Virus record (IMG/VR): IMGVR_UViG_3300046777_001585
Span: 1 to 56,448 of that record
DNA length: 56,448 bases
Origin: a virus
Taxonomy: Duplodnaviria > Caudoviricetes
Direction: 5' to 3' (one strand)
The notes beneath the pieces were generated by a model, which saw nothing but the letters and a program-made list of their open reading frames with translations, was not told the origin of the DNA and did no database searches. Position 1 is the first letter of the stretch, and every line of letters begins with the position of its first letter. A program made the translations under genes and the position numbers. This document shows positions 7,297 to 32,369 of the stretch, one piece after another.

Positions 7297-7318
7297 TAAC
7301 ATTTTTGAGGAATAGACA

Positions 7319-15744: not shown

Positions 15745-15753
15745 GGAGGGGAC

Positions 15754-15912
15754 ATGGACATTAAACTCACACTTTCCGTAGAAGAAGTAAACGCTGTTTT
15801 GCAGACCCTTGGGCAGTTGCCCACGTCTTCTGGTGCGTGGCCCCTGGTAGTCAAGATCAAATCGCAGGCCGAAAGCCAGATCCCAAAGGCCCCTGAAGGA
15901 GACAACCAATGA
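15754..15912 (+). CDS. 52-aa fibre-associated protein (not in ORF track)
   Basis: SD aaggagg; MDIKLTLSVEEVNAVLQTLGQLP...; ATGA overlap with the next gene. Confidence 0.7.
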   Translation: MDIKLTLSVEEVNAVLQTLGQLPTSSGAWPLVVKIKSQAESQIPKAPEGDNQ

Positions 15913-16241
15913 TCACGTACACGTGGACGGTTACTGCAATGGAAGCGGTTACTGAAGGTAGTTTGGATAACGTAATTGTTATCAGCTACTTTACCTGTTC
16001 AGGAGAAGAAAACGGGCTTAAGGGCGCTGCCTCCAGCGACTGCACGCTCCTTCCCCCGGACCCTGCTAATTTCATTCCGCTTGATCAAATCACGGAACAA
16101 GAAGCGGTAACCTGGACGTTGCAGGCCCTTGGTTCTTCCGGCGTCCAGAAGTACGAAGAGATGGTTGCCGCTCAGATTGAAGGACAGAAAACGCCGTCTC
16201 CGCAGTTCGTAGACTTGCCGTGGCTGCCGCCGCCAAACTGA
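15909..16241 (+). CDS. Tail-fibre-associated (assembly chaperone-like) protein
   Basis: YTWTV...FIPLDQITEQEAVTW...LPW pattern, typical downstream of fibres. Confidence 0.65.
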   Translation: MITYTWTVTAMEAVTEGSLDNVIVISYFTCSGEENGLKGAASSDCTLLPPDPANFIPLDQITEQEAVTWTLQALGSSGVQKYEEMVAAQIEGQKTPSPQFVDLPWLPPPN

Positions 16242-16252
16242 TGGGCGATTAG

Positions 16253-17008
16253 GTGAGCGCCTATTCTGACCAATATGTTGAATACGGATACTGGGTATCA
16301 GGGTATGCGGTAGGAGACATCACCTACGGGGATGTCTCCGGAGCTGAAGGGACTGGCAACTCCGGTACGGTATCGGTTGTCACTGGAAACATTGTTGATG
16401 TTTCTGGGACCTTTGGCACAGGTCAGGTAGGAACAGTTCAAGTAATTGGAAGCGTGACCTATGAGGTCACGGGTGTAGTTGGTTCCGGCCAGGTAGGGAC
16501 GGTCTCCACTGCGCAGAACTTTTCTTTTCTGGCAACCGGAGTCCAAGGGACCACGGCCCTTGGGTCTGTTTCCACCGCCGCCAGCACGTTTGCATCGGTT
16601 ACCGGCACAGAAGCAGCGGGTACGGCGGGGCAGGTTCAGACCTCCCAAAGCGTTGTTTACGAAACAACGGGGGTTTCCGGGACAAGCCAGGTTGGTACTG
16701 CGTCCGCGCTCCCGACAACCCTGGCATCCGTATCTGGGGTAAGTTGCTCTGGAGCGGTGGGAACCGCCTCTGCGTCCACTCTTTCTGGCGTCGTGGGCCT
16801 TGGTCAGTTGGGCTATGTTGTTGTTTGGGCGTCAATAAACGACAATCAAACTCCCGGCTGGGCCGTGGTCAATGACGCCCAAACAGCCAACTGGCTGACT
16901 GTTTCAGACTCACAGACACCCGCATGGGCTGCCGTAGAGGGAACTTCTTCCCCAGGGTGGTCTGTTGTAGACGATTCTCAGACCGCGACATGGTCACGAG
17001 TAGCATAG
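16253..17008 (+). CDS. Gly/Val/Thr-rich repetitive tail protein
   Basis: GxVGTV repeats; C-terminal Trp repeat (DxQTxxW) with 11-aa period. Confidence 0.65.
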   Translation: MSAYSDQYVEYGYWVSGYAVGDITYGDVSGAEGTGNSGTVSVVTGNIVDVSGTFGTGQVGTVQVIGSVTYEVTGVVGSGQVGTVSTAQNFSFLATGVQGTTALGSVSTAASTFASVTGTEAAGTAGQVQTSQSVVYETTGVSGTSQVGTASALPTTLASVSGVSCSGAVGTASASTLSGVVGLGQLGYVVVWASINDNQTPGWAVVNDAQTANWLTVSDSQTPAWAAVEGTSSPGWSVVDDSQTATWSRVA

Positions 17009-17018
17009 GAGCGAGCGA

Positions 17019-19265
17019 ATGGCTACATACACGAATCTTGGCATTAAGCAGATCACCACGGGCGACGAATCCGGCACGTGGGGAGATTCGACCAACACCA
17101 ACTTTGATTACTTTGACACAGCCATTGTCGGCTATGTCAGCGTTACGCTTGCTTCTGCGGGTAGTTCCGGTTCCCCGAACACGCTCAATGTTGCGGATTT
17201 TGCGGCGTCCAATGGGCGGAACAGGATTGTTGAGTTCGTGGACGCGGGTGATCTCGGGGGCACGGCCTACGTCCAAATTACTCCAAACGATTTTGAAGGG
17301 TACTACTTCATCCGGAACGGGCTTTCGGGGAGCCGTAGTATTTTGCTGTTCCAGGGGACGTATGACGCTGCTCGTGACTACGAGATCCCGAACGGGAAAG
17401 ACATCGTCGTACGTTGTTCTGGGGGCGGTAGCACGTCTTACATCTACAATGTGCTAGAAAACCTGCAGGTAGGAAATCTTTCGGCATCTTCGCTGACGGC
17501 CAGTACGGCGCTTGCGCTTGATTCTAGTAAGAACGTAATCAGCGTTACCAATACAGGCACTGGCAACAACGTTTTGGCCACCAGCCCAACGCTTGTTACC
17601 CCTGTCCTTGGAACTCCTACTTCTGGAACGCTGACGAACTGCACGGGACTGCCTGTTTCCACCGGCATTTCTGGACTGGGAGCGAATGTTGCGACGTTTT
17701 TGGCAACTCCTTCCTCCGCAAACCTTATCGCGGCTGTCTCTGACGAGACGGGTACTGGATCGCTTGTTTTTGCAACGAGTCCGACTCTTGTCACGCCCGT
17801 TCTTGGAACTCCTACTTCTGGAACGCTGACGAACTGCACGGGACTGCCTGTTTCTACGGGGATCTCCGGTTTTGGAACAGGCGTTGCAACTGCTTTGGCG
17901 GTAAACGTCGGGTCTTCTGGAGCTTTTGTGACTAATGGAGGCGCGCTTGGTACGCCTTCGTCGGGCACGGTGACGAATCTTACTGGCACCGCTTCAATCA
18001 ACATCAATGGAACTGTTGGAGCGACGACGCGGAACACGGGAAGTTTTATTAGTGTTACTACAAATTATGCAGATCGTGCATATAACGGAGCTTTTCTAGA
18101 AAACTCTCAGTTAGCCTCCGTTAACATCCCAAAAGACCACAGGTCTTTTGGAACAGCTGTTAGCCTGACCGATGCTTCAACTTTAACAAGCTATACGGGA
18201 CTTATTGTAGAAGGGGTTAACATACTGGCGGGGGGAACTGTTACTACTCAATACGGGGTTCAAGTACTTTCTTCTCTTAGCTCCGCCACAACAAACTACG
18301 GCGTTTACTCAAACATCGCCGTATCCGGCACAAGCCGCTATAACTTTTACGCGGCGGGTACTGCCCCGAACTACTTCGGCGGCAGCACAGTAATCAGCGT
18401 CACCGACAACACTAACGCTGCCCTGCGCGTCACGCAGCTTGGCACGGGTAACGCGCTGGAGATCGAGGACACTACTAATCCAGACTCCTCTCCTTTTGTG
18501 GTGGATGCAAACGGGGTTTTGATCAAGGGCCGTTCAACCACGGTATCCACCAAGGTTTTGGCCACTGCAGGGACGCTTGATGTTCAGGTCCATGGGACAG
18601 GTGCCGCCACCTCATCAATGGGCTTGTTCAACTATGCAAACAATGCCACTTTCCCGTCTTTCCTTGTTTTCAATAAAAGTAAGTCGGGAACCAGCGGCAC
18701 ACTAAGCGCGGTCACAGACGGCGACAATCTTGGTCTTATCCAGTTTAATGGCGCAGACAGCGACGCGACCTCGACGTTCAACCCCGGCGCATATATTTCT
18801 GCGCAAGTAGCAGGAGCAGTCGCCGCATCTTCAATTCCAGCCAGACTAAACTTTTCGACTACAGCGGTCGGAGCAACAACTCCAGTCACTACTGTGCAAA
18901 TAGCGTCCACCGGTCTTACCGTCACACGTGACGCAGCCGGCCTCGGGTACGGCACGGGTTCTGGCGGGGCTGTCACGCAGGCCACAAACCGCACAACCGG
19001 CGTCACGCTGAACAAGGCCAATGGCGCTATTACCCTGGTCTCTGCGGCAGGGACGGCAACTTGGCAGAGCTTCACTGTGACCAATAGCACGGTGGCTGCG
19101 ACTGACGTAGTAATCCTCAGCCAGAAGAGTGGGACGGACCTGTACATGCTTGAAGTCACGGCGGTAGCTGCGGGCTCGTTCCGTATCTCATTTGCTACAA
19201 CCGGAGGCACGACGACAGAGCAGCCGGTGTTCAACTTTGCGGTCATCAAGGCGGTGGCGGCTTAA
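17019..19265 (+). CDS. Tail fibre protein 2
   Basis: TGDESGTWGDSTNTNF anchor; ATSPTLVTPVLGTPTSGTLTNCTGLP repeat; C-terminal VTQATNRTTGVTLN domain. Confidence 0.8.
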   Translation: MATYTNLGIKQITTGDESGTWGDSTNTNFDYFDTAIVGYVSVTLASAGSSGSPNTLNVADFAASNGRNRIVEFVDAGDLGGTAYVQITPNDFEGYYFIRNGLSGSRSILLFQGTYDAARDYEIPNGKDIVVRCSGGGSTSYIYNVLENLQVGNLSASSLTASTALALDSSKNVISVTNTGTGNNVLATSPTLVTPVLGTPTSGTLTNCTGLPVSTGISGLGANVATFLATPSSANLIAAVSDETGTGSLVFATSPTLVTPVLGTPTSGTLTNCTGLPVSTGISGFGTGVATALAVNVGSSGAFVTNGGALGTPSSGTVTNLTGTASININGTVGATTRNTGSFISVTTNYADRAYNGAFLENSQLASVNIPKDHRSFGTAVSLTDASTLTSYTGLIVEGVNILAGGTVTTQYGVQVLSSLSSATTNYGVYSNIAVSGTSRYNFYAAGTAPNYFGGSTVISVTDNTNAALRVTQLGTGNALEIEDTTNPDSSPFVVDANGVLIKGRSTTVSTKVLATAGTLDVQVHGTGAATSSMGLFNYANNATFPSFLVFNKSKSGTSGTLSAVTDGDNLGLIQFNGADSDATSTFNPGAYISAQVAGAVAASSIPARLNFSTTAVGATTPVTTVQIASTGLTVTRDAAGLGYGTGSGGAVTQATNRTTGVTLNKANGAITLVSAAGTATWQSFTVTNSTVAATDVVILSQKSGTDLYMLEVTAVAAGSFRISFATTGGTTTEQPVFNFAVIKAVAA

Positions 19266-19276
19266 GGAGTGCGGTC

Positions 19277-21136
19277 ATGGCTCTTCTCCGTTTGGCATTA
19301 AAGCCGGGCATAGACAAACAGAATACAGAGTACGGAGCGGAGGGCGGCTGGACCGACTGCGACTACGTGCGCTTTCGCTATGGCCTTCCTGAAAAAGTAG
19401 GCGGCTGGACGTGGTTCGAGCAGCTTGAAACCTATCTCGTTGGCGTCGTATGTCACTCGAGATCTTGGACTTCCTTGGCGGGTGTCCCTTACATGGTAGT
19501 GGGGACAACAAAGAAGCTGTACGTCTATTCCGGCGGTCTTTGGGACGACATCACGCCGCTGCGGGCAACGACCGCCGCTGGAGACGTTACTTTTGCGGCG
19601 ACCAACGGGTCTCCGACCCTTACGGTTACTGACACCGCTCACGGCGCGTTGGCCGGGGATTTTGTTACGTTTAGCGGGGCCAGTTCTCTCGGGGGAAACA
19701 TCACCTCGGCTATCTTAAACGCCGAATATGAAGTTACCTCAGTTCTGACCGCGAACACCTACACCATAACGGCTCCCGTTAATGCCAATGCTTCTGACAG
19801 TGGTAACGGAGGAGCCTCTGTTGTAGGGGCGTACCAGATTTCGATTGGCTTAGACATCAACTACTTCGACTTTGGGTGGGGCGTTGGAGTGTGGGGTGGC
19901 GGGACATGGGGAACCCCTCGTGCTGCCGGCCTAGGCCTGTTTGCTCGAATTTGGCAGTTTGATAACTACGGCGAAGACATGGTCTGCCAGGTCGTGAACG
20001 GCGGAACATACTACTGGGACACCAGCGCAGGCCCTAGCACGCGCGCTTCTCAGATCTCGGGAGCCCCTACCAAAAGTACGTTCGCCCTTGTCTCTACCCC
20101 TGATCGACACCTAGTGTGTTTTGGGACCGAAACAACGATTGGAACTGCGGCTACTCAAGACCCCATGTTTGTGAGGTTCTCCTCCCAGGAGGACATTGGG
20201 AACTTTGCCGAGACTGCCACCAACACCGCGGGAGGTCAGCGGCTCACGGACGGCAATCAGATTGTCACTGCGCTCCGGTCACGCGGCCAGATACTTATCC
20301 TGACGGACACGTCATTGCACGGCATGCAGTACATCGGGCCGCCATACACTTTCGGTTTCCAGCAGCTGGGCGCAAATTGCGGATGCATCGGGGCCCATGC
20401 AGCGGTAGACATCAACGGCCTGGCGTTCTGGATGAGCCAGGAGGCGTTCTACGTATTCGACGGAACGACCAAAAAGCTTCCCTGCACTGTTCAGGACTAC
20501 GTGTTCGACGACATCAACTCCGTGCAAGGAACCCGCGTTTTTGTGGGCCTGAACTCCGATTTCAACGAGGTCACATGGTTTTACTGTTCGCAGAATTCGG
20601 ACTACATCGACCGCTGCGTGACGTTTAACTACCTTGAGCAGGTCTGGAGCATTGGAACCATGTCTCGGACGTGGTGGGAGGATGCCTCGGTGTTTAAGTA
20701 CCCGACAGCGTTTTCCTACCTGCCAAGCAGCACTGAAAGCACTATTTCGACGGTTTACGGCCTGTCGGCGGGAAGGTCTCCCGCGTACGCGCAGGAGTAC
20801 GGAAAGAATGCGGTTGACGAGGCCATCACGGCCTACATTCGTTCGGGCTATTTTGACATTGGCGACGGAGACAACATGCTCCTCATGAGCAGGTTCTTGC
20901 CTGACTTCAAGGAGCAGGAGGGAGACCTTACGGTCCACTTGTTGCTGCGGGCATACCCGCAGGGCACTGCCTCCCCCAGTTCCCTGGACCCATACACGGT
21001 AACGCCTACGACGACCAAGATCGACACCAGGGCGCGGGGCAGACAAATCTCGCTTCGGATCGAGAGTGACGAGATTGACACCAAGTGGCGGTATGGAACC
21101 CTGCGGGTAGACTTGCAGCCGGACGGCCTTAGATGA
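19277..21136 (+). CDS. Tail nozzle/tubular protein B-like (P22 gp10-like stabilisation protein)
   Basis: LKPGIDKQNT...VRFRYGLPEKVGGW...DPMFVRFS...RARGRQ...DLQPDGLR; 619 aa, directly upstream of the ejection genes. Confidence 0.7.
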   Translation: MALLRLALKPGIDKQNTEYGAEGGWTDCDYVRFRYGLPEKVGGWTWFEQLETYLVGVVCHSRSWTSLAGVPYMVVGTTKKLYVYSGGLWDDITPLRATTAAGDVTFAATNGSPTLTVTDTAHGALAGDFVTFSGASSLGGNITSAILNAEYEVTSVLTANTYTITAPVNANASDSGNGGASVVGAYQISIGLDINYFDFGWGVGVWGGGTWGTPRAAGLGLFARIWQFDNYGEDMVCQVVNGGTYYWDTSAGPSTRASQISGAPTKSTFALVSTPDRHLVCFGTETTIGTAATQDPMFVRFSSQEDIGNFAETATNTAGGQRLTDGNQIVTALRSRGQILILTDTSLHGMQYIGPPYTFGFQQLGANCGCIGAHAAVDINGLAFWMSQEAFYVFDGTTKKLPCTVQDYVFDDINSVQGTRVFVGLNSDFNEVTWFYCSQNSDYIDRCVTFNYLEQVWSIGTMSRTWWEDASVFKYPTAFSYLPSSTESTISTVYGLSAGRSPAYAQEYGKNAVDEAITAYIRSGYFDIGDGDNMLLMSRFLPDFKEQEGDLTVHLLLRAYPQGTASPSSLDPYTVTPTTTKIDTRARGRQISLRIESDEIDTKWRYGTLRVDLQPDGLR

Positions 21137-21825
21137 GCAAGATCCTCAACGTCCGTCTGCCCAACGCTATTCCCCGGGAGTACAGCCCGGAGCAGTTCAA
21201 CCAGCTTGTGCGGTCGCTTGAGCAGGTCATTTTCCAGCTCAACACAAGCTACACCCCGACCACGACCGAGAACACGGACGGGGCAGGGCGTTGGTTTGGG
21301 GGCACGGCGGGCCCCTCCGGCATTTCTGGGCCGCAAGGTGCCCAGCAACTCCTTCTTCCTCATGGGGCTTTCAGGAGTGACCAAGACCAGACGGCGGCAT
21401 CTACGACTGTTGGCTATGCAATCACGTACAACGTGACAGACCTGTCAGAGGGCGTGTATGTCACCAACTCCTCGCGGGTGAACGTGGACTACGCAGGGGT
21501 CTACAACGCCCAGTTTAGCCTTCAGTTGATCAATACGGACAGCCAAATACATGACGTTGATATCTGGTTCTCAAAGAACGGCACTAACATTGCGGACAGT
21601 AACAGCCGGTACAGCGTTACCTCCTCTCACGGAGGCGTGGACGGAGGTCTAATTGCCGCCCTTAACTTCTATCTGGACCTTAATCCGGGGGATTACTTCG
21701 AAATCTACTGGAGCACGACAAATACGGCGATTTCTCTCCAGCAGTTGCCCACGGCGACTTCCCCGACCCGTCCAGCAACGCCTTCTGTCATCCTGACGGT
21801 GGGTTATATCTCATCTTTGAGCTAA
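21133..21825 (+). CDS. Tail-associated structural protein
   Basis: EYSPEQFNQLVRSLE N-terminus plus a C1q-like beta domain; ATGA overlap. Confidence 0.6.
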   Translation: MSKILNVRLPNAIPREYSPEQFNQLVRSLEQVIFQLNTSYTPTTTENTDGAGRWFGGTAGPSGISGPQGAQQLLLPHGAFRSDQDQTAASTTVGYAITYNVTDLSEGVYVTNSSRVNVDYAGVYNAQFSLQLINTDSQIHDVDIWFSKNGTNIADSNSRYSVTSSHGGVDGGLIAALNFYLDLNPGDYFEIYWSTTNTAISLQQLPTATSPTRPATPSVILTVGYISSLS

Positions 21826-21829
21826 AAAA

Positions 21830-22162
21830 ATGGCAAATAAGTACTTCCGGCAGCGGCTTTCCCCCAGTGCTACGACGGAAACCGACCTTTACACGGTTCC
21901 GCCTGCCAATACGGCCATTTTAAACTCGTTGAGGGTGACTAACGCCAATGCCTCTAGGGCCGCGATCACCGTTTCTCAGTACGTTAGCGGGTCGGCCACC
22001 GAATACTACCTACTAAGGTCCTATAACCTTGCCCCTAACAGCACGATGGACGTTTTTAACGGCGTTCCCTGTGTCCTGGAGGCGGGGGACAAGATTTCAG
22101 TGGAAGCCTCAGTTTCGACGGTTTATTTTCACCTGTCCTATCTGGAAGTGGACAGAAACTAG
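21830..22162 (+). CDS. Small tail-associated beta protein
   Basis: MANKY...LYTVP...VLEAGD...SYLE family. Confidence 0.65.
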   Translation: MANKYFRQRLSPSATTETDLYTVPPANTAILNSLRVTNANASRAAITVSQYVSGSATEYYLLRSYNLAPNSTMDVFNGVPCVLEAGDKISVEASVSTVYFHLSYLEVDRN

Positions 22163-22242
22163 GCTTTTGGAGCATTATTAGTGCCATCTTCGCGTCCTTT
22201 CTTGGCGCGCGGCCCACGGGCCATGGCACATTACAGGAAAGG
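22149..22242 (+). promoter_or_regulatory. Putative promoter and pseudoknotted leader that sequesters the SD
   Basis: TGGACA-18-CATTAT. P1 22181-87/22223-29, P2 22191-96/22204-09, P3 22211-14/22219-22; loop CUUUCUU is complementary to AGGAAAG at 22235-41. Confidence 0.55.
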
Positions 22243-22250
22243 TATGAAAC

Positions 22251-24131
22251 ATGGCTGAAGGTATCATGTCCCTGCCCGATTCTCCCGAAATGACGGGGGA
22301 ATTCGATGTCACTAATGGCCCGGAAGTTTCTCCCGAGGACCGTAAGAAGTTCGAGGACGCGGTTCGTGAGTATGCCAACGCCGACCCGGTTCGGTTTGGC
22401 AATGACCTCATGGGCGCGGTTGAAGAGGCCGATCCAGAGACGGTACGCGAATTTCGAGACGTTTTGTCTTCCGTAGACATGCCCGATGAGCTGGTTGATG
22501 CCATGGGGCAGATGGTTGACGCTTTGCTGAGCGAACCAGAGAACTATGAAGAAAACCGTCAGGGATTTATTGCGGAAGGGGTTCCGGAAGAACTCCTGCC
22601 GGTGACGTTTGATGCCGCCTATTTCACCGCTCTAAACATCGCGCTTGACCAAATTTCCGAGCAGAAAAACAGCCGCCCGGAAATGCCTGACAACATGGAA
22701 TTTGCCGAAGGGGGCCTCGCCACCTTGGCTGATATGGGCCGTGGTCCTGACACCATGCTGGCGCACATCACGCCTTCCGAGGCACGATTGCTGCGCCGCA
22801 GGGGCGGAAGTGGAACCATAAACCCTGATACAGGACTGCCAGAGTTTTTCTTCAAAAAAATATTCAAGGCCATTGGGAAGGTCTTCAAAGCCGCGGTAAA
22901 CGTCGTTACAGCCGTCGTCAAACCAATCGTTAACGTCGTCAAGAAAGTAGCTGAAAATCCTATCGGAAGGGTCCTCCTCACTGTCGGGGCAACGATGCTC
23001 CTTGGTCCGGGAAGCGCGCTTTTTGGTGGAGCTGGCTTGGCGGGATCGCTTGGCATGGCGGCCATGCCCAACTTGGCGCTGGCCTTCAATACTGCGGCTG
23101 CAAGCACTTTGGTGAACTGGGCGGGCGGCCAGAAATTTGGCGATGCGCTTAAGGGCGGATTGTTGACTGGCGCTACAGTGGGCATTGGCTCCAAGGTGCT
23201 TAACCTGACCCCGGAGGCATACACCAAGGCGGCAGAGGCCGCGAAAAGTTCTGCCGCAGTAAAGACAGCCGGGCTGGGGGAAAGTTACGCGGGAGAGATG
23301 CCGGAAGCTACTGCACTGCCCGAAGGGGGCGCCAATCAGGCTATCACCTCCGCAAAGGCGTCGGTTCCCGACGCTGCCACCAGTGCGGCGGATATCGCGG
23401 CGAAAGCAGGTTCTCCCACCACAGCGACCAAGGCCGTCGAACAATCGTGGCTTGGCAAGACCTTTGGAAAGCCCGGTGAATGGGTCAACGACAACATTCT
23501 ACCTGGCGGGATTAAGCAGAAGGGCGAGGTTGCGGCCAACGAAGCGTTTGACAGCGCCTACAAAGACGCCATTGCCGGGGGCTTAAGCGACAAGGCCGCT
23601 ACTACTCTTGCCCAAAATGCGTATGACGCAGCTGTCCCCGGACTTCTTCGGACCTACGGCCCGCTTGCTGCCGTCGGGATAGGGGGCGCGTATCTGGCGG
23701 GGGCTTTTGACCCCGCCACGGGAGAAGAAGCAGCGCCCCCGCCAGGCTACGAGGGGATGATCGACGAACGCTACGCTGGAAAGACCGGCTATCAATTGAT
23801 CGAAGAAGACCCCGAGAAATGGGCCTTCAAAAGAGGAGATTATTCCACTGGGTATCACGGGTTTGACCCCTACTCCTCGAACTACCTCTCGGGGTCCGCG
23901 CCTCAGTACGCTGCCAAAGGCGGGGAAATGACGCTTGATGATTTTCCCCGTAAGACTGGCAAGATCGACGGCCCTGGAACCGGGACTTCGGACTCAATTC
24001 CAGCGATGCTTTCCGACGGAGAGTTTGTATTCACCGCAAAGGCGGTCAGGGGCGCGGGCAACGGCTCTCGGCGTGCGGGCGCTGCTCGCATGTATGCCTT
24101 GATGAAGTCGCTGGAGAAGTCCAATGCCTGA
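22251..24131 (+). CDS. Internal virion/ejection protein with membrane-active segments
   Basis: GRGPDTMLAHITPSEA...TINPDTGLPEF and GPGTGTSDSIPAMLSDGEFV motifs; amphipathic and glycine-zipper helices. Confidence 0.65.
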   Translation: MAEGIMSLPDSPEMTGEFDVTNGPEVSPEDRKKFEDAVREYANADPVRFGNDLMGAVEEADPETVREFRDVLSSVDMPDELVDAMGQMVDALLSEPENYEENRQGFIAEGVPEELLPVTFDAAYFTALNIALDQISEQKNSRPEMPDNMEFAEGGLATLADMGRGPDTMLAHITPSEARLLRRRGGSGTINPDTGLPEFFFKKIFKAIGKVFKAAVNVVTAVVKPIVNVVKKVAENPIGRVLLTVGATMLLGPGSALFGGAGLAGSLGMAAMPNLALAFNTAAASTLVNWAGGQKFGDALKGGLLTGATVGIGSKVLNLTPEAYTKAAEAAKSSAAVKTAGLGESYAGEMPEATALPEGGANQAITSAKASVPDAATSAADIAAKAGSPTTATKAVEQSWLGKTFGKPGEWVNDNILPGGIKQKGEVAANEAFDSAYKDAIAGGLSDKAATTLAQNAYDAAVPGLLRTYGPLAAVGIGGAYLAGAFDPATGEEAAPPPGYEGMIDERYAGKTGYQLIEEDPEKWAFKRGDYSTGYHGFDPYSSNYLSGSAPQYAAKGGEMTLDDFPRKTGKIDGPGTGTSDSIPAMLSDGEFVFTAKAVRGAGNGSRRAGAARMYALMKSLEKSNA

Positions 24132-27102
24132 AACTACTTATACCGGCCAAATCGTCAGAGAGGCCCCGGAGGTTGAGGCCCAAAAAGCTGCGGTTATTAA
24201 ACTAGCGCAGGACGAACTTAAAAAAGATTTTCAGCTTCCCGCATACGTCGCAGCAGGACTTTCGCCTACCCAGCTTCAGGCCATGGACCTTGCTCAGCAA
24301 GGTATCGGCCTCTACGAACCCTACCTCGATGCTGCCTCAGATGCCATTACCCAGGGCCAAGACCTGGCGATGCTGGGTGCGCAGGACATCTACGGCATCA
24401 ACATGGACCCGCAGTTCCAAGCTGCGCGAGAAGCCTACCAGCAGGGGATAATCTCGGCTGACCAGCTGGGCCAGTACCAGCAGGACATTGCGGAGGGAAG
24501 CCAGTACATCAAACGTGGTGCCAACGTCGTGGGCCGCGCTGCTGGGATGGCGGACGACTACCTGCAGGCCGACCTTGGGCGTGCCCAAGGCCTGATGGGC
24601 CAAGGGGCGGCAGCCGTTCGCGGCGCGGAACCTGACTTTGGGGCAGCGGAACGTGTAACTAACCGCCTCGGCACCTATGCCCAACAGGCTGGGCAGGGCG
24701 CGGGCAGCGTTACCGGTGGGATTGCCGGAATTAACGAAGCGCAGCGGATGCTTCGCGGCGAAACCAGCGCCGACCTTGGCGCAAGCCAAGCTGCTATCCG
24801 GCAGGGCTTGGCCGCTACGCGAGGCGCGGACACTGATTTTAGTGCAGCAGAACGTGCTGCACAGGGCATTGGTCAGTTTATCAATGCGGCGGACGAGGGA
24901 ATGGGGACCGTGGCCCAAGGCACACGGGGCATGGCCCAAGCAGCACGGTCAGCGGATGAGTACGCGCAGGCGGACACTGCGGCCAGTGAGGCCGCTCTTC
25001 GTCAGGGGCTTACCGCTGCCAGGGCAGTCGACCCGAATTTCGCTGCTTCAGAGCGTATTGCAAGGGGAATGGGGCAGTTTACTAATGCCGCAGACCTTGG
25101 CATGGGAGCTATTGGCCAAGGGATGCAGGGAATGCGTCGCGCCGCACAAGGTGCGGAGGAATACGCGCAGGCGGACCTTGGTCGTTCTCAGGCGTTGATT
25201 AACCAAGCAGCACGTACCTCGCAGCAGGCGGACGTTGACATGGGCTTGGCGAACCGAGCGGTTCGGTCCGGGATCCAAACGGCGGGCAATATTTCAGAAG
25301 CGGCAATGCCCGCGCAGCGTCAGGCGGCCCGAACGATCAACCTCGGCATTGAAGGCCTGCTCCAAGGCGCGGAAGGATATTCTCCTGACGCCGCCCAAGA
25401 ATTCATGAACCCCTATCAGCGTGCGGTCACACGTCAGGCGATGCAGGAGATGCGTCGCCAGGCTGACATTGCGCGTCAGGAAATGGCTTCCCAAGCGGTG
25501 CGTGCGGGGGCTTTTGGTGGTACTCGCGAAGGGGTTCAGCGCGCTGAGTTTGAACGCAACGTTCAAGACCAGATGCAGCAGAAGATCATGCAGGACTACG
25601 CGCAAAATTATTCGCAGGCGCAGCAGGCTGCGATGCAGGGCTTTGAACAGCAGCAGCAGCGTCAACTTGGGCAAGGCACTGCGCTTGGCCAGTTGGGGCT
25701 TTCGCAAAGCGAAATCGGCCAGCGCAGCGCGGCCACTCTTGCGCAGGAGGCCGCGCTTCAGGGCACCCTTGGAACTCAAGCGGGGGCTCTGCAGAGTGCA
25801 GAATCACAGGCGGAACTCGCGCAGGCGGCTCAGTTGGCGCAGGCAGGGCAGGCACTTGGCCAGCAGGAGCTTCAGCAGGCCCAGCTGGGCCAAGCGGCCA
25901 CTGGGCTCGAAGCGAACATCTACCAGAACTTGGTTCAGGCTGGATATGCTCCGGCACAGATCGCTCAGGTTCAGAGCCAGATTGAAGCGCAGCGTGCGGG
26001 TATTCTTAGCGACGCTGAGTCCAGGTCGCTACAGGCTGAGCTTTCGAGGGCGCAGCAGATTGCCCAGACGGGCCAGGCAATGGGCCAACAGGCTATTCAG
26101 CAGGCTCAGCTGGGCCAAGCCGCTACCGGGCTCGAAGCGAACATCTACCAGAACCTCGTCCAAGCGGGGTATATGCCGGCGCAGATTGCACAAATTCAGG
26201 GGCAGATGGCCGCGCAGCGCGCAGGCCTGCTTACCGACGTGCAGTCGCGAGAACTCCAAGGAGAACTTGCGAGGGCGCAGCAGCTTGTACAAGCTGGGCA
26301 GACGCTTGGTCAGCAGGAAATCCAGCAGACCCAGCTGGGGCAGTCCGCTGCGCAGGCGATGGGCGCGTTGTCCGCCCAGGAAGCGCAGGCAGGGACGATG
26401 TATGGCCAGATTGCTGGCCAGCAGGCGAACATCACAAACCAGCAAGCGCAGAACCTAGCCAATATGCAGACCCAAGAGGCTCAGTTGGGTCTTCAGCAGG
26501 GTCAGCAACTGGCGAACATTGGCCAAACCATGGGCGCACAGGAAATCCAGCAGGCCCAGTTGGGGCAGCAGGGCGTGCAGAACATGGCTGCCGCTGGCCA
26601 GGCCCTTGGTCAGATGGGCCTGCAGCAGGGTCAGTTGGGCACGGCCCAAGGAAACCTTGCCACGCAGGAAGCGCAGTTGTACGGACAGCTTGGCCAAGGC
26701 ATTGGCAGTCTTGCCGCCCAGCAGGCGGGAACGACGCTGTCTCAGGGGCAGGCGCTGGCGCAGACTGGTCAGCAAATCGCTTCCATGGGCATCCAGCAGG
26801 GCGCTATTGGCCAACAGGCGCAGGCCGGCGCACAGGCCGACGTGGGTCAGTTGTTCAACCTTGGCGTGGCCGAGCAGCAGAACGCGCAGATGCAGGAAGA
26901 CGCTATCCGGGCAACGGCAGTACAGGAGGCGATGCAGGGGCGTCAGGACGTGGGGTTCATGAGCGACATTGTGAGAGGAGCGCCGACGACCCAGATGTCG
27001 ATGTCCACGCAGGCTGCGCCAAGCGCAAGCACTCTGCAGCAGATCGCTGGAATTGGAACGGGTCTTATGGCCGGAGCAGGCGCCGTAAAAGGGCTTATGT
27101 AA
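24124..27102 (+). CDS. Gln/Ala/Gly-rich ejection (DNA pilot/tube-like) protein
   Basis: Central FMNPY...AGAFGGTR core, helical repeats on both sides, and a hydrophobic C-terminus. Confidence 0.65.
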   Translation: MPETTYTGQIVREAPEVEAQKAAVIKLAQDELKKDFQLPAYVAAGLSPTQLQAMDLAQQGIGLYEPYLDAASDAITQGQDLAMLGAQDIYGINMDPQFQAAREAYQQGIISADQLGQYQQDIAEGSQYIKRGANVVGRAAGMADDYLQADLGRAQGLMGQGAAAVRGAEPDFGAAERVTNRLGTYAQQAGQGAGSVTGGIAGINEAQRMLRGETSADLGASQAAIRQGLAATRGADTDFSAAERAAQGIGQFINAADEGMGTVAQGTRGMAQAARSADEYAQADTAASEAALRQGLTAARAVDPNFAASERIARGMGQFTNAADLGMGAIGQGMQGMRRAAQGAEEYAQADLGRSQALINQAARTSQQADVDMGLANRAVRSGIQTAGNISEAAMPAQRQAARTINLGIEGLLQGAEGYSPDAAQEFMNPYQRAVTRQAMQEMRRQADIARQEMASQAVRAGAFGGTREGVQRAEFERNVQDQMQQKIMQDYAQNYSQAQQAAMQGFEQQQQRQLGQGTALGQLGLSQSEIGQRSAATLAQEAALQGTLGTQAGALQSAESQAELAQAAQLAQAGQALGQQELQQAQLGQAATGLEANIYQNLVQAGYAPAQIAQVQSQIEAQRAGILSDAESRSLQAELSRAQQIAQTGQAMGQQAIQQAQLGQAATGLEANIYQNLVQAGYMPAQIAQIQGQMAAQRAGLLTDVQSRELQGELARAQQLVQAGQTLGQQEIQQTQLGQSAAQAMGALSAQEAQAGTMYGQIAGQQANITNQQAQNLANMQTQEAQLGLQQGQQLANIGQTMGAQEIQQAQLGQQGVQNMAAAGQALGQMGLQQGQLGTAQGNLATQEAQLYGQLGQGIGSLAAQQAGTTLSQGQALAQTGQQIASMGIQQGAIGQQAQAGAQADVGQLFNLGVAEQQNAQMQEDAIRATAVQEAMQGRQDVGFMSDIVRGAPTTQMSMSTQAAPSASTLQQIAGIGTGLMAGAGAVKGLM

Positions 27103-27111
27103 GGAATTCCT

Positions 27112-29160
27112 ATGAAGTCAAAAGTGCTTAATCGTCCGATGTTTCAGAAGGCCATGGACCCCGAAAACGTGGGGATCATGCATGGCTTCAAGGATTCCCT
27201 TGAGGACAACCTCAAGAAGGTCATGTCGATGTCCGAAGAGGACGACGACGAGAACGAGGCCCCGGAGTACGAAAACGAGGATGAGGAGGGCGAATCCGGG
27301 AGGATGATCGGCAGAACGCCCCGCTCTCCGGAAATCCTGATGAACACCTTGCGCGGGGACATGCGGTCCCCTTCCGCGCGCAGGAAGGAGCTGGCTGACC
27401 TGGTGGGCGAAGAGGCCGCCATGGAAACACCTGAGGAGGTGTTGACGCTGCTCCAAAGCAAGCTTGGCCAGGGCATTGCCAGTGTCCCCGGCTCACAGAA
27501 CGCGGGCCCAGCGCCCGGTGGGGCCCCTCCTCCTCCCCTCCCGCCACCGGGCGCTGGTGCACCGCCCTCAGGTCCGATGGGCCTTGAGGCACTTGGGTCG
27601 CAACTTCAGGCGGCGGGGCTTACGCCTCCCGCAGGCGGCGCGCCTGCCCCAGAGGCACCGGCATCTGGACCAGGGCCCGCGGCCCCCGGACCACTGAACA
27701 TGGCCGACGGCGGTGAGGTTAGCTATGAGCGGTACTACGCCGGCGGCGGAGACGTTCAAAAAAAAAGTAATCTGGAAGATGTAGTTTCCCGTTTTGGAAG
27801 CCCCAATACGGAGGATATTAAAAAGCGTATGGGGGAATATACCTCCCTGTACGGCGATATCCTCGGGGATTCTAAGAAACAGAAAGACCTAGACAAGGCG
27901 CTTATGCTGGCGCAGATCGCCCAGCGTGGGTTCAACTTTGCGGCAAACGTTAGCCCTACCGGAACTCCTTTGACGGGCTCGTTCGCGGCCCGCGCTGCAG
28001 GGGCTTTTGGGGATGTTCCGGGGATTCTTGTCGAAGGGACCAAGAATCAGCGCGAGCGAGATCAAAAAATCAAACTCGCGGCACTTGAAGCCGCTCGCGG
28101 AGACGAATCGGAATCTCGCAAGCTCCTGAGTCAGCTATACATTGCAGACATGAAGGGTAAAGGGTCGTCTAAAACCCTTGTTAAAGAGTTTGTGGACGAA
28201 AACGGCCGGTACGTACAAAGAAACGTTGTTTACGATAAAGATGGAACCTACAAAACGACTTTCACCGACGTTTCTGGGAATGAGATCGTTCCAGGAAAGC
28301 TGTATGAACTTGGGGGGAAAGAAGACGGTGCGGGGGGCGCTGGAATATCCGGCCTCTCTTCAAAAGCAAACGAAGGAACTGCTTTTCTGGCTCAAAATGC
28401 AGAAGCCTACTTAAATGGCACCCTTGCTCCTGAGATGAGAAATGTATTTAGATCTCTTATAGCGGAAGAATTCAGGCCCGCAACAGACTCTGAGGGCAAC
28501 GTTTCCTATATTCCGAGTCCTCTTGCAAAGGATTTGATTGCGAGAGACCCCTCGTTGGCTCTCGTGGTTCCGTCTAGTGTTTCTCCTACAGGAAAACCCG
28601 TGTCTGGCGGGCTTTCTGAAGGAGTTCCCGGAGGAGTTCCCTTGGAAACCCAAGACCAGCGAGAGCCGACTCTTTACGAAAACAGTAGAGGCGTAGGGGG
28701 GCTCGGGGCTCTTGAGGCAGGGTTAGCAAGGGTTCCTTTGGTGACAGAATATGCTGGATCACCGGAACTTCTTGCGAGGAAAAATTCGTTTGCGCTTCAG
28801 ACTAGGCAGCTCCTGAACGAACTTAATGCGAATAAGGCTAAGTCCTTTAGTTCCTCCCAAGACCTGAGGGATGCGCTTGGAAATGTCCAAGACCCCAGCG
28901 TAATTACTACGCAAGCATCCCTTGACGCAGCTGTCCGTACCCTAGACGAAGCATATGCTCGGTTAATACAAGAAACCCAGACCATAATGGAAAATCCAAC
29001 GACCAGTAAGAATAGAAGGGAAGCAGCGGAAGAGGCCTTTATTCTTGCAAACGAGCATAGATCCCAAATTGGCTACCAAGCTGGAATAGAAGAAGAAAAG
29101 GCCATCAGGGACAGGGCTGAACTTTCTCGTTTGAGGAAGCAGATGGGAGGAGGACTGTAA
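27112..29160 (+). CDS. Internal virion/ejection protein
   Basis: VLNRPMF N-terminus, acidic and Pro-rich linkers, MADGGEV motif; lies in the ejection-gene block. Confidence 0.6.
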   Translation: MKSKVLNRPMFQKAMDPENVGIMHGFKDSLEDNLKKVMSMSEEDDDENEAPEYENEDEEGESGRMIGRTPRSPEILMNTLRGDMRSPSARRKELADLVGEEAAMETPEEVLTLLQSKLGQGIASVPGSQNAGPAPGGAPPPPLPPPGAGAPPSGPMGLEALGSQLQAAGLTPPAGGAPAPEAPASGPGPAAPGPLNMADGGEVSYERYYAGGGDVQKKSNLEDVVSRFGSPNTEDIKKRMGEYTSLYGDILGDSKKQKDLDKALMLAQIAQRGFNFAANVSPTGTPLTGSFAARAAGAFGDVPGILVEGTKNQRERDQKIKLAALEAARGDESESRKLLSQLYIADMKGKGSSKTLVKEFVDENGRYVQRNVVYDKDGTYKTTFTDVSGNEIVPGKLYELGGKEDGAGGAGISGLSSKANEGTAFLAQNAEAYLNGTLAPEMRNVFRSLIAEEFRPATDSEGNVSYIPSPLAKDLIARDPSLALVVPSSVSPTGKPVSGGLSEGVPGGVPLETQDQREPTLYENSRGVGGLGALEAGLARVPLVTEYAGSPELLARKNSFALQTRQLLNELNANKAKSFSSSQDLRDALGNVQDPSVITTQASLDAAVRTLDEAYARLIQETQTIMENPTTSKNRREAAEEAFILANEHRSQIGYQAGIEEEKAIRDRAELSRLRKQMGGGL

Positions 29161-32100
29161 TGGCCGCCATTCCTTTGAACGAAGAAGAAAAAAAAGAACT
29201 TGAGTACCTGAGAAAACTTGAAGAACTCAAGATACGCGAAGCCTCAACTCTTGATCGTGCGAAAGCTTCAGGAACGGGGGCGTTGGCGGGACTCGGCTCA
29301 GGATCCGCGGTTCTTTCTGGTGCTCTCGCGGGCGGAAGACTTGGGGCCGCAATAGGCGCTCCTTTTGGGGCAGCGGGGGCGGTTCCAGGGGCACTTATTG
29401 GGACAGGCCTTGGCATGGCTGCGGGATACAGTGCCGGGGAAGGCTTTGAATCTCTTTTGCCGGAAGTTCCTCCTGAGCTGCGTTCGTGGTATGAGGGAGG
29501 TAAGACGACTGGCGAAGCGCTTGGAGGGGCTGGCGCGCTTAGGGCTGCAGCGAAAATACCGACGGCACTTCCAAAATTTCTTCAGGGAATGGGCCTTGAA
29601 AAAGGGAGTTCCTCCGCATTCTTTGGAAAAGAAGCTGTTCCCGCTGTAACTTCTGGAGTGGCGGGAGGGGCTGCTTATGACAAAAATCCAGAAGCCCATT
29701 TGAATAGGTTTATTGCCGAAACGGCGGCTGGATTGGCCTCCCCTTCGTCGATCACAGCCAGTGTTGCCCCGCGCATGAAGGACATGGCGCTCAAAGTTTC
29801 TTCTGCCGTGGGATTTGGCGGCCCTGCTGCAGATCAACGGGCAGTAAATATTTTGTCTGAGGTTCTGTACCAGAACGAACAGATTCCGCTGGACGCTGCT
29901 GATATAGAAATGCTTATCAAAAGGCTTGAAGCAGGTACAGCGCTTCCGCCTGGGGTTTCGCCTACCGCCGCTCAAAAAGTATCCAAGTCCACGTTAAAAG
30001 GTGGATCTCGGGCCTCTGACGTTCTAGTAGCTTTGGAGAAAACCCTCGCTAGGGATAATTCCGAATATGCAACCGACGTAAAGGCTCAAGCCGAAAAATC
30101 TGCAAATGCTTACCAAGCGCTTATAAATGCCCTCAAGGACAGCGGCGATCCGGCGGTCCTTGAGGCTGTCGCAAGCGCTCGAAAGTACAGGTTTGAGGCT
30201 CTCTTAGACGCCCAGAGAATGCGTGCGGAAGATCGCGCAGCGCGGGCTGTTTCTAGGATTGGAACAGTAGGCTCCGCTGATGAGGCCCGAAAGATCGCTG
30301 GCACCGTGGTACAGCAGAATATTGAGTCTTCTTTGGCGAATGCTCGTGAATACGAAAGGATGCTTTGGACTCGCGCAGAAAGGGGAAGCCCGAGAACTGG
30401 GATGGTTCAGCGGGAACCGGGCCTTGGTACGGGCATCGTGCCTGCCAAGCCTCAAAAAGGCTCCGGAGGAGTGCAAAGGACCTTTGTGTCTGTTCCCAAT
30501 CTTCGGAGAAAAGCCCTTGAGATAGCGTCCTCTGTTGGCCCTCTTCGTAAAGGAACGGATCTTTCCGCTGGAGGGAAGGTTATGTCTATTCTTGGCATAT
30601 CGCCCAAGGATCTTGACCTTTACAACCAGGGAAAACTCACCGATGAGTATCTCAGCACCGGAGTTGTTCCCAGTGATTACATCAGGGGCGGCAAAGAATT
30701 TTCTGTCAATGACTTGGTACTGATTCGGTCAGATCTTCTTGCCCTTGGCAGGGATGCGGCCTCTCCCAATGACGCTAGAATGTTTGGGTCTTTGTCCAAT
30801 GCAGCATTGGATGATCTCTCAAAGATCAATCTTCCAGGGTATGACGAAGCTCGCGCCTTTTCAAAGGCGCTAAATGATTCCTACACCAGAACCTACGCCA
30901 ATGAAATAGTGGAGGACGCAGTACCCGAGTACCTGGTACAGAAATCGTTTGCAACGGCAAATGACAGAACCGCATCCCGTCTTTCTGAGGTCGAGGACGC
31001 GGTGGGACTCATGTCCCGTATGTATGATGACGCAGTCAAGAACAATCTTCCTTCTGCTGAAGAACTTGCCCCGTATGCTCAAATGTCCCGAGAGGGCGTT
31101 GACTCCATACAGGAAGCCGAAAGAAACATCTACAGACTTGCGGCAAACAAGGCTCTAGGGCCCGATGGGAGGGTCAATCCCGCAAAACTGTCTGAGTTTG
31201 TAAACCAGAACAAGATGATCCTGGATAAGCTTGGGCTTACTGCGGACATGGAAAACGCAGTTTCCGCTGAAAATGCATTGAGGGCAGCAGTAGACCAACA
31301 GAGTGCGATTAACAAGCAGATTGCCTCTCAGTCCTACCTGTCTCCCCTTCTCGGAGGGAAAAGCCCCGTAAAGGTTCTCTCCGAAGCGGTCGCAAAAGGA
31401 TCTACAAAAAGGGTTAGCGATCTATTGAAGGTCGCCAAAAGGGGCGGTGCGGATCGACAGCAGGCAATAGATGGACTTCGGTCAGCTGTTTACGAATATG
31501 CCTACACGAATGCAGGTGGAGATAAAAGCTTCAGTCCAGAAGCGTTTGAAAAAGCCCTTTTTTCGCCCATTGGAAGAGGGCAGCCTTCTCTTGCAAAACT
31601 TCTAAGGAACGAAGGAGTATTCCAGCCTTCTGACATCAAAAATGTCCTTTCACTGACGAGATCAATGCGCCGAATTGAGAATTCGGTTAACAACAACATT
31701 CGCCTTGACCAACTTGATCCGCAGAACTTGATGGAAGAGCTTCTCGTCAGTCAGTACGCCCTGAAACTTGCCTCGGCAACGAGTCCGGGAGGCGCGGGGT
31801 CCTTGAGCTGGGCTTCTAAGTTCAAGGATGTTGCATCCAGATACCTGGACAAAATGCCCGCTAGAAAGATGAGGATTATCCTTGAAGAGGCCAATAGCAA
31901 TCCCCGTCTGATGGCTAATCTTTTGCGTCGAACAGCTCCTATGTCTCCCAAGCAGAAAATGCAGAACCTGCGGGCGCTGAACTCGTACATGTACGCTGCT
32001 GGATTGAACTATTTTCCGGAGGAGCTTGAGTCCCAGCTTCAGGGTATCGAGCCGACGGAACAGGATGAGGTTGAGGCTAACCTTCCAAAAGACGGAACTG

Positions 32101-32369
32101 CTCGTGGGTTTCTTGAAAGACTCTTTCAGGGATCTCCTGCTGTTCCATCCTCCAGAGGGGTCCCTGGCCAAGAAGCAGCACCTGCTGCCCCTGCGCCGGG
32201 GCCCGCGGCCCAAGGAGCACCTGCCCCCGGCCCTGCAAATACGCAAAGCCGAGCGATGCTGGAGTCCTTGTTCCCCGAAGACAGGCTCTTAAAAGGCCTT
32301 ACCCCTCCCCCGCAGCCTCCCGCTCCGGAGGTTCCGCCGGAGGTTCCGCCGGAGGAAGAGGCCGCATAG
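29160..32369 (+). CDS. Large internal virion/ejection protein
   Basis: 1069 aa, N-terminal glycine zipper, mostly helical; last gene of the structural operon. Confidence 0.6.
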   Translation: MAAIPLNEEEKKELEYLRKLEELKIREASTLDRAKASGTGALAGLGSGSAVLSGALAGGRLGAAIGAPFGAAGAVPGALIGTGLGMAAGYSAGEGFESLLPEVPPELRSWYEGGKTTGEALGGAGALRAAAKIPTALPKFLQGMGLEKGSSSAFFGKEAVPAVTSGVAGGAAYDKNPEAHLNRFIAETAAGLASPSSITASVAPRMKDMALKVSSAVGFGGPAADQRAVNILSEVLYQNEQIPLDAADIEMLIKRLEAGTALPPGVSPTAAQKVSKSTLKGGSRASDVLVALEKTLARDNSEYATDVKAQAEKSANAYQALINALKDSGDPAVLEAVASARKYRFEALLDAQRMRAEDRAARAVSRIGTVGSADEARKIAGTVVQQNIESSLANAREYERMLWTRAERGSPRTGMVQREPGLGTGIVPAKPQKGSGGVQRTFVSVPNLRRKALEIASSVGPLRKGTDLSAGGKVMSILGISPKDLDLYNQGKLTDEYLSTGVVPSDYIRGGKEFSVNDLVLIRSDLLALGRDAASPNDARMFGSLSNAALDDLSKINLPGYDEARAFSKALNDSYTRTYANEIVEDAVPEYLVQKSFATANDRTASRLSEVEDAVGLMSRMYDDAVKNNLPSAEELAPYAQMSREGVDSIQEAERNIYRLAANKALGPDGRVNPAKLSEFVNQNKMILDKLGLTADMENAVSAENALRAAVDQQSAINKQIASQSYLSPLLGGKSPVKVLSEAVAKGSTKRVSDLLKVAKRGGADRQQAIDGLRSAVYEYAYTNAGGDKSFSPEAFEKALFSPIGRGQPSLAKLLRNEGVFQPSDIKNVLSLTRSMRRIENSVNNNIRLDQLDPQNLMEELLVSQYALKLASATSPGGAGSLSWASKFKDVASRYLDKMPARKMRIILEEANSNPRLMANLLRRTAPMSPKQKMQNLRALNSYMYAAGLNYFPEELESQLQGIEPTEQDEVEANLPKDGTARGFLERLFQGSPAVPSSRGVPGQEAAPAAPAPGPAAQGAPAPGPANTQSRAMLESLFPEDRLLKGLTPPPQPPAPEVPPEVPPEEEAA

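Follow-up and report, generated by a model that had tools for sequence, protein, structure and literature searches.

Why does a densely packed virion gene block leave 88 nucleotides (nt) non-coding directly ahead of four large genes, and what might the RNA transcribed from this interval do? The DNA concerned, hereafter the window, is IMG/VR virus record IMGVR_UViG_3300046777_001585 (Duplodnaviria; Caudoviricetes), which comprises 56,448 bases and is rated 91% complete. Its virion module lies on the + strand at ~11437-32369, and the interval at 22163-22250 is the largest non-coding gap within it. A preliminary description of the window had drawn a promoter, a leader RNA with three helices (P1, P2 and P3) and a Shine-Dalgarno sequence (SD) ahead of an ATG at 22251, and had proposed a translational off switch with riboswitch-like architecture. 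Direct reading bore out every coordinate it gave, and P1, P2 and its loop, P3, the SD, the start codon and the promoter hexamers are all present. We have found that the gap carries two adjacent hairpins behind a conserved sigma-70-type promoter, and that in the window's subfamily of relatives the loop of the first hairpin is an invariant complement of the SD. We propose, at about even confidence, that this is a promoter-proximal leader whose mimic of the 16S rRNA tail masks the SD, lowering translation of the operon's first gene.

A promoter coupled to two hairpins

A blastn search of phage records returned one match, the lake phage DSL-LC04, which falls exactly across the gap and has the same context. 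Changes between the two leaders preserve pairing: A and U are inserted on opposite strands of P1, a U.G pair of P2 becomes U-A, and a G-C pair of P3 becomes G.U. A 24-position core pattern matched at least 119 IMG/VR stretches, with the module before the same gene, and the matches listed gave 98 unique 184-nt contexts in which the layout was always alike: sigma-70-type promoter, 11-12 nt, P2, one C, P3, ~13 nt, SD and AUG. An unbiased sample was obtained by fetching loci via the upstream protein, which yielded 110 loci (some contigs were fetched twice) and, with the window, 111 segments. Promoter, P2 and P3 are present in 90 of these; the 21 segments that lack the module are L013-17, L020, L021, L023, L396 and the distant L459-470. 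Alignment A3 comprises the 46 unique unbiased leaders, with L403, which has the element, skipped by the parser and L455 incomplete. A covariance model built from A3 (R1) recovers one copy in the window at 55.9 bits, the next best scoring 18.2, and one copy in four of five near-complete relatives, the fifth being without the element altogether. The second-best match in the window (7208-7321, E 0.09) covers the end of the gene at 6817-7296 and the short gap before 7319 and is probably noise.

The promoter consists of a -35 hexamer, TGGACA (22149-22154, + strand), and a -10 hexamer, CATTAT (22173-22178, + strand), separated by an 18-nt spacer, with a consensus score of 9/12. It is the sole promoter-like site on the + strand within 15000-33000. 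A relaxed pattern has one other match in the window, a TGGACA-18 nt-CATTAT arrangement inside coding sequence on the minus strand (39139-39168). Relatives carry T[AG]GACA or TTGATA, 17-18 nt, and nATAAT (CATAAT or GATAAT), and the hexamers are conserved while the spacer drifts (1.68 bits per position in the -10 hexamer versus 0.66 in the spacer). In most loci the -35 hexamer overlaps the last codons of the upstream gene, which in the window read GTG GAC AGA AAC TAG. L036, L038, L047, L449 and others have a different end to the upstream gene, and a separate copy of the hexamer, TGGACA or ATGACA, follows its stop codon at the appropriate spacing. Because the -35 hexamer has been re-created outside coding sequence in these relatives, conservation of the promoter is not a coding artefact, and the promoter first proposed from the window alone is upheld. 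A sigma-54 promoter at TGGCAC was rejected, since it lacks the -12 element of the consensus. Among the 49 proteins scanned against PHROGs none matched an RNA polymerase family, although absence of a match is not proof; reliance of the phage on the host polymerase throughout would fit.

Transcription usually starts 7-8 nt after the -10 hexamer, at a purine following a pyrimidine. The distance from the -10 hexamer to P2 is 11-12 nt in 73 of 77 unique leaders, and a pyrimidine followed by A occupies positions -6/-5 from P2 in 72 of 83 leaders and in 33 of the 46 unbiased ones. By these rules transcription is predicted to start at about A22186 (+ strand), the eighth nt after the -10 hexamer and 5 nt before P2. 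The RNA runs consist of contigs. In one of them (X20) four short contigs of a relative map inside the gene at 22278-23233, with none on the leader or upstream, a result from which neither a transcription start nor a lack of transcription can be read; another (X23) has no contigs on the region. No terminator-like site lies between the upstream tail genes and the leader. The leader itself was rejected as an intrinsic terminator, as no U-tract follows P3 or P1 in the window.

P2 (22191-22209, + strand) pairs CGCGUC (22191-22196) with GGCGCG (22204-22209), including a U.G pair, around the loop CUUUCUU (22197-22203). A single C (22210, + strand), invariant in 46/46 unbiased leaders, separates it from P3 (22211-22222, + strand), in which GGCC (22211-22214) pairs with GGCC (22219-22222) around the loop CACG. 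Both hairpins are defined by folding and by covariation. On A3, 95.2% of the cells of P2 and P3 are paired and 6 of the 10 pairs show changes on both sides. None of 500 shuffles was as high on four of five measures (152 of 500 were on the remaining one, 'further pair types'), and slid controls gave 19.7-61.4% paired. P2 has 99.1% of its cells paired and double changes at 3/6 pairs, and occurs as CGCGUC/GRCGCG (R, purine), CGCAUC/GAUGCG, CGUGC/GCACG, CACGUC/GACGUG, CACGC/GCGUG and CGCGUU/AACGCG. P3 has double changes at 3/4 pairs and occurs as GGCC, GACC/GGUC, GGUCC/GGACC and GGGC/GCCC. U.G and G.U pairs are frequent, and the structure is therefore assigned to + strand RNA; the U.G pairs argue against both a minus-strand RNA and a DNA cruciform. 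A comparison with Rfam, which the preliminary description had recommended, produced no family: Rfam 15 has no match at the gathering threshold in the whole window, and on 22100-22300 the best scores, 16.5, 12.2 and 12.1 bits, stayed below the respective thresholds of 84, 43 and 88.

Loop, Shine-Dalgarno sequence and helix P1

The SD AGGAAAGG (22235-22242, + strand) is the complement of CCUUUCUU (22196-22203), with a predicted duplex energy of -11.4 kcal/mol. The pairing that had been noticed at the outset, between the P2 loop and AGGAAAG (22235-22241), is confirmed as 7 base pairs (bp) including one U.G, and it extends to 8 bp as CCUUUCUU:AGGAAAGG. The sequence UCCUUUC presumably resembles the 3' tail of 16S rRNA. 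The SD core GGAAAGG is invariant in 83/83 unique pattern-found leaders, though it lies outside the search pattern, and in all 83 the six loop-SD pairs counted are paired and invariant, except that CG becomes UG in 5. In the window's clade, a loop change from C to U retains its pair as U.G. Such invariance is unusual; other genes of the phage have assorted, ordinary GGAG-type SDs. Among the 46 unbiased leaders, 22, including the window's, form a subfamily (group A) with a 7-8-nt loop containing CCUUUC together with GGAAAGG and with duplex energies of -8.2 to -12.4 kcal/mol; within it the complementarity, 7-9 nt long, is invariant. Conservation of the loop-SD complementarity thus holds for this subfamily and fails for the remaining 24 of the 46.

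How the two sequences would meet is a matter of folding. A 7-nt loop on a 6-bp stem should sterically permit an H-type pseudoknot of ~5-6 bp. Thermodynamic folding favors a longer nested helix that opens P2, and the minimum free energy (MFE) structure of the whole 98-nt leader is a nested fold different from the one drawn, in which the 5' strand and loop of P2 pair with the SD. Under nested folding of 89 leaders the SD is mostly paired, with a mean unpaired probability of 0.131 in the long (read-through) RNA and 0.105 in the short (promoter-initiated) RNA. We hypothesize that a host-type sigma-70 internal promoter drives the mRNA of four large putative internal-virion/ejection genes, and that this RNA would begin at about A22186, 5 nt ahead of P2 and P3. 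Among members of the window's subfamily CCUUUCUU, made up of the P2 loop and its closing bases, would mimic the anti-Shine-Dalgarno tail of 16S rRNA and pair with the SD. The pairing could take the form of a loop-to-tail pseudoknot or, once strands have been displaced, of the longer nested helix. Such pairing would hide the ribosome-binding site, and translation of the first gene would be lowered or delayed.

P1 pairs GUGCCAU (22181-22187, + strand) with AUGGCAC (22223-22229, + strand). Folded by itself, the 49-nt P1-P2-P3 unit adopts the structure drawn (-23.8 kcal/mol, z -2.93), a stability matched by 1 of 200 shuffles. P1 is found in most members of the window's subfamily; its duplex reaches -6 kcal/mol or lower in 59 of 77 leaders, and the mean for cognate strands is -6.44, a value that none of 1000 permutations reached, compared with -5.74 when partners are shuffled. 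Double changes occur at 5/7 P1 pairs, with 61.1% of cells paired by a fixed-column count, and variants include GUGCCAU/AUGGCAC, GCCAAU/AUUGGC, UAGCC/GGCUA, UGGGCC/GGCCCA and GGGC/GCCU. Across leaders the 5' strand of P1 takes up nt 1-10 downstream of the -10 hexamer; with a start predicted at nt 7-8, most of that strand lies between the hexamer and the start, and in the window A22186 itself falls inside it. Promoter-initiated RNA is without most of the strand and therefore cannot form the three-way junction. Only read-through mRNA carries the whole P1 5' strand, so that it would fold differently from promoter-initiated mRNA; the simplest reconciliation would be that P1 belongs to transcripts entering from the upstream tail genes, in which the junction can close. 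Of the structured leader first drawn behind the promoter, P2 and P3 are retained as conserved, covarying hairpins, and the three-way junction has to be given up for the promoter RNA.

Two further observations concern the bases around P1. The sequence GCCAU (22183-22187) has two possible partners, AUGGC of P1 and AUGGC at the start codon; the latter helix (22251-22255), which the MFE structure of the 98-nt leader uses, was rejected as it is not kept in L131 and L031 by inspection. In some group-B loci (the 24 other unbiased leaders), such as L408, L410, L411 and L419, the 4-6 nt before P2 (UAAUU(U) or UUAUU) complement the bases before the SD (AAUUA, AAAUUA or AAUAA), with a compensatory A/U swap. 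This A-U-only P1 differs from the window's P1 and would lie within the promoter-initiated RNA.

Several observations weigh against masking as the role of the leader. Group B keeps promoter, P2 and P3 and has 3-5-nt or unrelated loops without complementarity (+0.3 to -4.0 kcal/mol), ahead of SDs such as AAGGA, AGGUG, GAAAGG and AAAGG. The loop-SD pairing shows no compensatory change, both partners being invariant where present. The whole 98-nt leader is not exceptional in folding energy (z -1.41, 18 of 200 shuffles as good). P1 is weak or missing in 18 of 77 leaders, and the SD is predicted to be more open in the short form in 9 of the 89 leaders and in the long form in 14; the modeled long and short RNAs thus have no consistent difference in SD accessibility. 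RNAalifold on the 83-sequence alignment predicted only P2, as register shifts in P1 and P3 defeat a column-wise method, and the invariance of the P2 sequence in that set was imposed by the search pattern. Finally, L013 and L396 (one contig) have the same downstream gene (M..EEGIMAL) behind a TTGACT-17 nt-TATACT promoter and a short leader without hairpins, which looks, from its sequence, like natural loss or replacement of the module.

Since the whole leader is not exceptional, the case for more than chance rests on conservation and not on folding energy. The covariation check suggested at the outset came out in favor of P2, P3 and five of the seven P1 pairs and gave nothing for loop and SD; with both sides invariant, covariation neither proves nor disproves that pairing. 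Because 24 of 46 leaders keep promoter, P2 and P3 without complementarity, the shared function of the module is not loop-SD pairing, which on the sequences compared is best described as an add-on and not as universal. L438 and L447 (SD GAAAGG) and L454 (AAAGG) keep a group-A-type P1, but neither the loop complement nor the 5' GG of the SD survives in them, a hint of loop/SD co-evolution in about two events.

Known systems and alternative roles

Leaders that sequester an SD are a near parallel to the proposed masking: here too the leader contains a pyrimidine stretch complementary to 7-9 nt of the SD, and pairing of the two is predicted. Unlike in those leaders, the anti-SD lies in the loop of a conserved hairpin, so that pairing would be a pseudoknot, and it is part of a promoter-plus-two-hairpin module that also exists without the anti-SD. 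In the T4 genes e (lysozyme) and I-TevI, the DNA specifying the 5' arm of an inhibitory hairpin contains a late promoter, according to excerpts of PMC3014915. Given the predicted start, the promoter here likewise overlaps DNA for the 5' strand of a conserved helix, and for this reason read-through and promoter-initiated RNAs must fold differently. The arrangement differs from that of T4 in that the SD lies outside P1, which stops 5-7 nt short of it (P1 3' strand 22223-22229, SD 22235-22242), in that the promoter is of the sigma-70 type and not a T4 late promoter, and in that predicted SD accessibility does not differ consistently between the two RNA forms. A lambda-type nut site (boxA plus boxB) was also considered and rejected: the resemblance of CGCGUCYUUU (Y, pyrimidine) to the boxA consensus is gone in the covarying P2 variants CGUGCAUAUGGCACG and CACGUCUCCCGACGUG, so that the hairpin is conserved and not the linear sequence.

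Three other roles are compatible with masking and not mutually exclusive with it. 5'-terminal stem-loops shield ompA mRNA from 5'-end-dependent decay, and P2 and P3, set 5 nt in from the predicted start of the RNA, might similarly serve mainly to protect the promoter-initiated mRNA of the 10-kb operon from RppH and RNase E, the loop-SD match being secondary; we regard this as doubtful, though with some real chance of being right. The fixed 11-12 nt between the -10 hexamer and P2 in 73/77 leaders, the pyrimidine-A step 5 nt ahead of P2 and the presence of both hairpins in 46/46 unbiased leaders, whatever the loop or SD, all speak for protection, as do those group-B leaders in which bases before P2 and before the SD pair (UAAUU/AAUUA, UUAUU/AAUAA) and would leave almost no free 5' end. 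The stabilizing stem-loops of ompA and papA share a hairpin a few nt from the (here predicted) 5' end at a conserved distance, but not the two hairpins, invariant linker and conserved loop seen here. A stabilizer, moreover, needs no set sequence, no two hairpins joined by an invariant C and no 7-nt SD complement; five unpaired 5' nt may be too many, given that Bacillus subtilis RppH reportedly needs at least 2 and prefers at least 3; and the start site is itself a prediction. Alternatively, the P2 stem and its pyrimidine-rich loop, with P3, could be an operator: an RNA-binding protein of the phage or the host would bind it and so repress or time translation, as T4 RegA does (excerpts of PMC3014915 describe this type of repression) or as coat proteins do at their operators. 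The narrow conservation of the P2 stem in the unbiased set (pair 13-32 is CG in 46/46, pair 14-31 GC in 42/46), the pyrimidine-rich loops of most leaders and the invariant junction C would suit an operator. However, no candidate protein was identified, the stems covary freely, and the loops diverge among clades (CUUUCCC, CUCU, UCCC, AUAUG, UGU, GGUUGCU) in a way that is hard to square with one specific binder, so that we consider an operator decidedly unlikely. The last of these roles is that of a nascent RNA whose two promoter-proximal hairpins bind the polymerase and resist pausing or termination over a long operon. The HK022 put RNA, which in excerpts of PMC9378689 is ~70 nt long and has two stem-loops, with putL just downstream of PL and acting over at least 10 kb, is the model. 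As in put, two adjacent stem-loops come straight after a sigma-70 promoter and head a long operon, here ~10 kb of genes without another gap; their distance from the promoter is fixed among the leaders. The pair measures 32 nt in the window, about half the size of put, and ~32-36 nt overall; its stems, of 6 and 4 bp, are unlike the long bulged ones of put; no similarity to put was seen, nor to any Rfam family in sequence or model, and no strong terminators are predicted downstream on the + strand. We judge this role improbable.

Two further explanations were considered. A ligand-sensing riboswitch or thermometer, in which the three-way junction binds a small molecule or melts and so frees the SD, is suggested only by architecture, namely the junction and a possible loop-tail pseudoknot beside the SD. 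The junction strands J12 and J31 vary in both sequence and length, with only the C between P2 and P3 fixed, and there is no conserved unpaired core; the riboswitch-like sensing of the preliminary description accordingly finds no support. In addition, RNA started at the promoter cannot form P1, many members lack this helix, Rfam has no matching riboswitch model, and the downstream genes encode virion proteins and not metabolic ones, all of which makes sensing very improbable. That the element has no function, with chance complementarity or a palindrome at the DNA level, could be argued from the whole-leader z of -1.41 and from the promoter scan, which found fewer sites in the window than in shuffles (2 versus 6.6). 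Conservation and covariation across hundreds of contigs oppose this, U.G pairs would count as mismatches at the DNA level or in a transcript of the opposite strand, and the variable spacing of the P1 arms does not fit a protein-bound DNA palindrome; absence of function is hardly to be believed.

Genomic setting, distribution and implications

The gene directly upstream of the gap (21830-22162, + strand) encodes a 110-residue virion-module protein of phrog_1276. A seemingly larger gap of 164 nt at 15745-15908 is filled by a 51-codon open reading frame (ORF; 15755-15911) with a strong AAGGAGG SD, the stop codon of which overlaps the ATG of the following gene. Downstream, the first of the four large genes (22251-24131, + strand) encodes a 626-residue putative internal-virion/ejection protein and is followed by genes for 992, 682 and 1069 residues, which end at 32369. 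The C-terminus of the 626-residue protein matches tape-measure PHROGs, and its middle is Gly/Ala-rich and hydrophobic, with no 19-mer that reaches the Kyte-Doolittle cut-off of 1.6. The nearest relative in GenBank has syntenic genes annotated as tape measure protein, hypothetical, hypothetical and DNA transfer protein. Searches of PDB sequences gave no match for either the 626- or the 1069-residue protein. 'First ejection gene' is a reasonable label for the putative 626-residue product, judging by these similarities, and membrane-active ejection proteins are plausible products of the downstream genes. An out-of-frame mini-ORF (22244-22258, ATG AAA CAT GGC TGA) overlaps the real start; its ATG at 22244 opens only 4 codons and is absent from the close relatives L004 and L011, so the start codon is that at 22251, and the N-terminus M..EGIM.LP is kept in relatives. 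A leader peptide was rejected, since the frame from ATG 22223 to a TGA is missing in DSL-LC04 and ATG 22244 is unconserved. Elsewhere in the window, within the head module, a 157-residue protein (5459-5932) matches the PHROG 'co-chaperonin GroES' (E 6.7e-17).

The module is at home in uncultured phages. DSL-LC04 has been placed in a group made of uncultured viruses, and the excerpts of that study (PMC10611076) make no mention of the leader region. Among cultured phages a homologue of the upstream gene was found only in Pelagibacter phage HTVC106P (35.5% identity) and in more distant phages; HTVC106P has a 35-nt gap and different downstream genes, and the arrangement is absent from it. No cultured phage with the leader was found in the collection searched. 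A scan of the genome_contigs collection gave two matches and no isolate genome or prophage with the module: one match is a chance hit in a GC-rich coding region of Corallococcus, and the other is a true copy on an 8.4-kb contig (L153) of a metagenome-assembled genome labeled uncultured Bifidobacterium. L153 carries the full module (promoter, P2, P3, GGAAAGG and the M..EGIM start) and is probably a phage contig binned with a bacterial genome. Two loose loop-variant patterns matched at least 117 and at least 120 stretches; among the matches listed none had a -10 hexamer at the right distance, and they were dismissed as chance matches in GC-rich phage DNA. DNA near-identical to 21500-23500 occurs in 19 DNA-type runs (freshwater, lake-water and drinking-water metagenomes) from 15 coded studies, and two of these runs may be the window's source. 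In the DNA run X5 the summed contig depth is 159.7 in the bin 22170-22236 versus ~5-11 in neighboring bins, which would fit an exact P2-P3 core common to many co-occurring phage genotypes in one sample. A literature search on phage leaders with an anti-SD, a pseudoknot and a three-way junction turned up nothing on the motif among the papers listed, which does not prove it unpublished.

A bolder combination of these elements seems to us unlikely, if attractive. The universal core (sigma-70 promoter, 11-12 nt, P2, C, P3) might be an unrecognized, promoter-coupled nascent-RNA module of uncultured aquatic phages, acting put-like on the polymerase or on the fate of the 5' end across the 10-kb operon with no protein needed. 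The window's subfamily would then have added the SD-masking 16S-tail mimic and the P1 strand under the promoter, so that read-through and promoter mRNAs would be translated differently, which would amount to a differently constructed counterpart of the temporal gate of T4 gene e.

The universal P2-P3 pair offers a concrete experimental target for the study of promoter-proximal RNA structure, and the covariance model can be used to annotate the motif in viromes. The module marks a real internal promoter in the structural gene block of phages without a detected RNA polymerase gene, which aids the reading of their transcription program. It also provides a clean comparative series, rare for phage leaders, in which members differ in the presence of P1 and of the loop complement. 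If masking works as proposed, translation of virion genes in abundant uncultured phages of lakes and other aquatic habitats would be subject to a widespread control element defined by its sequence.

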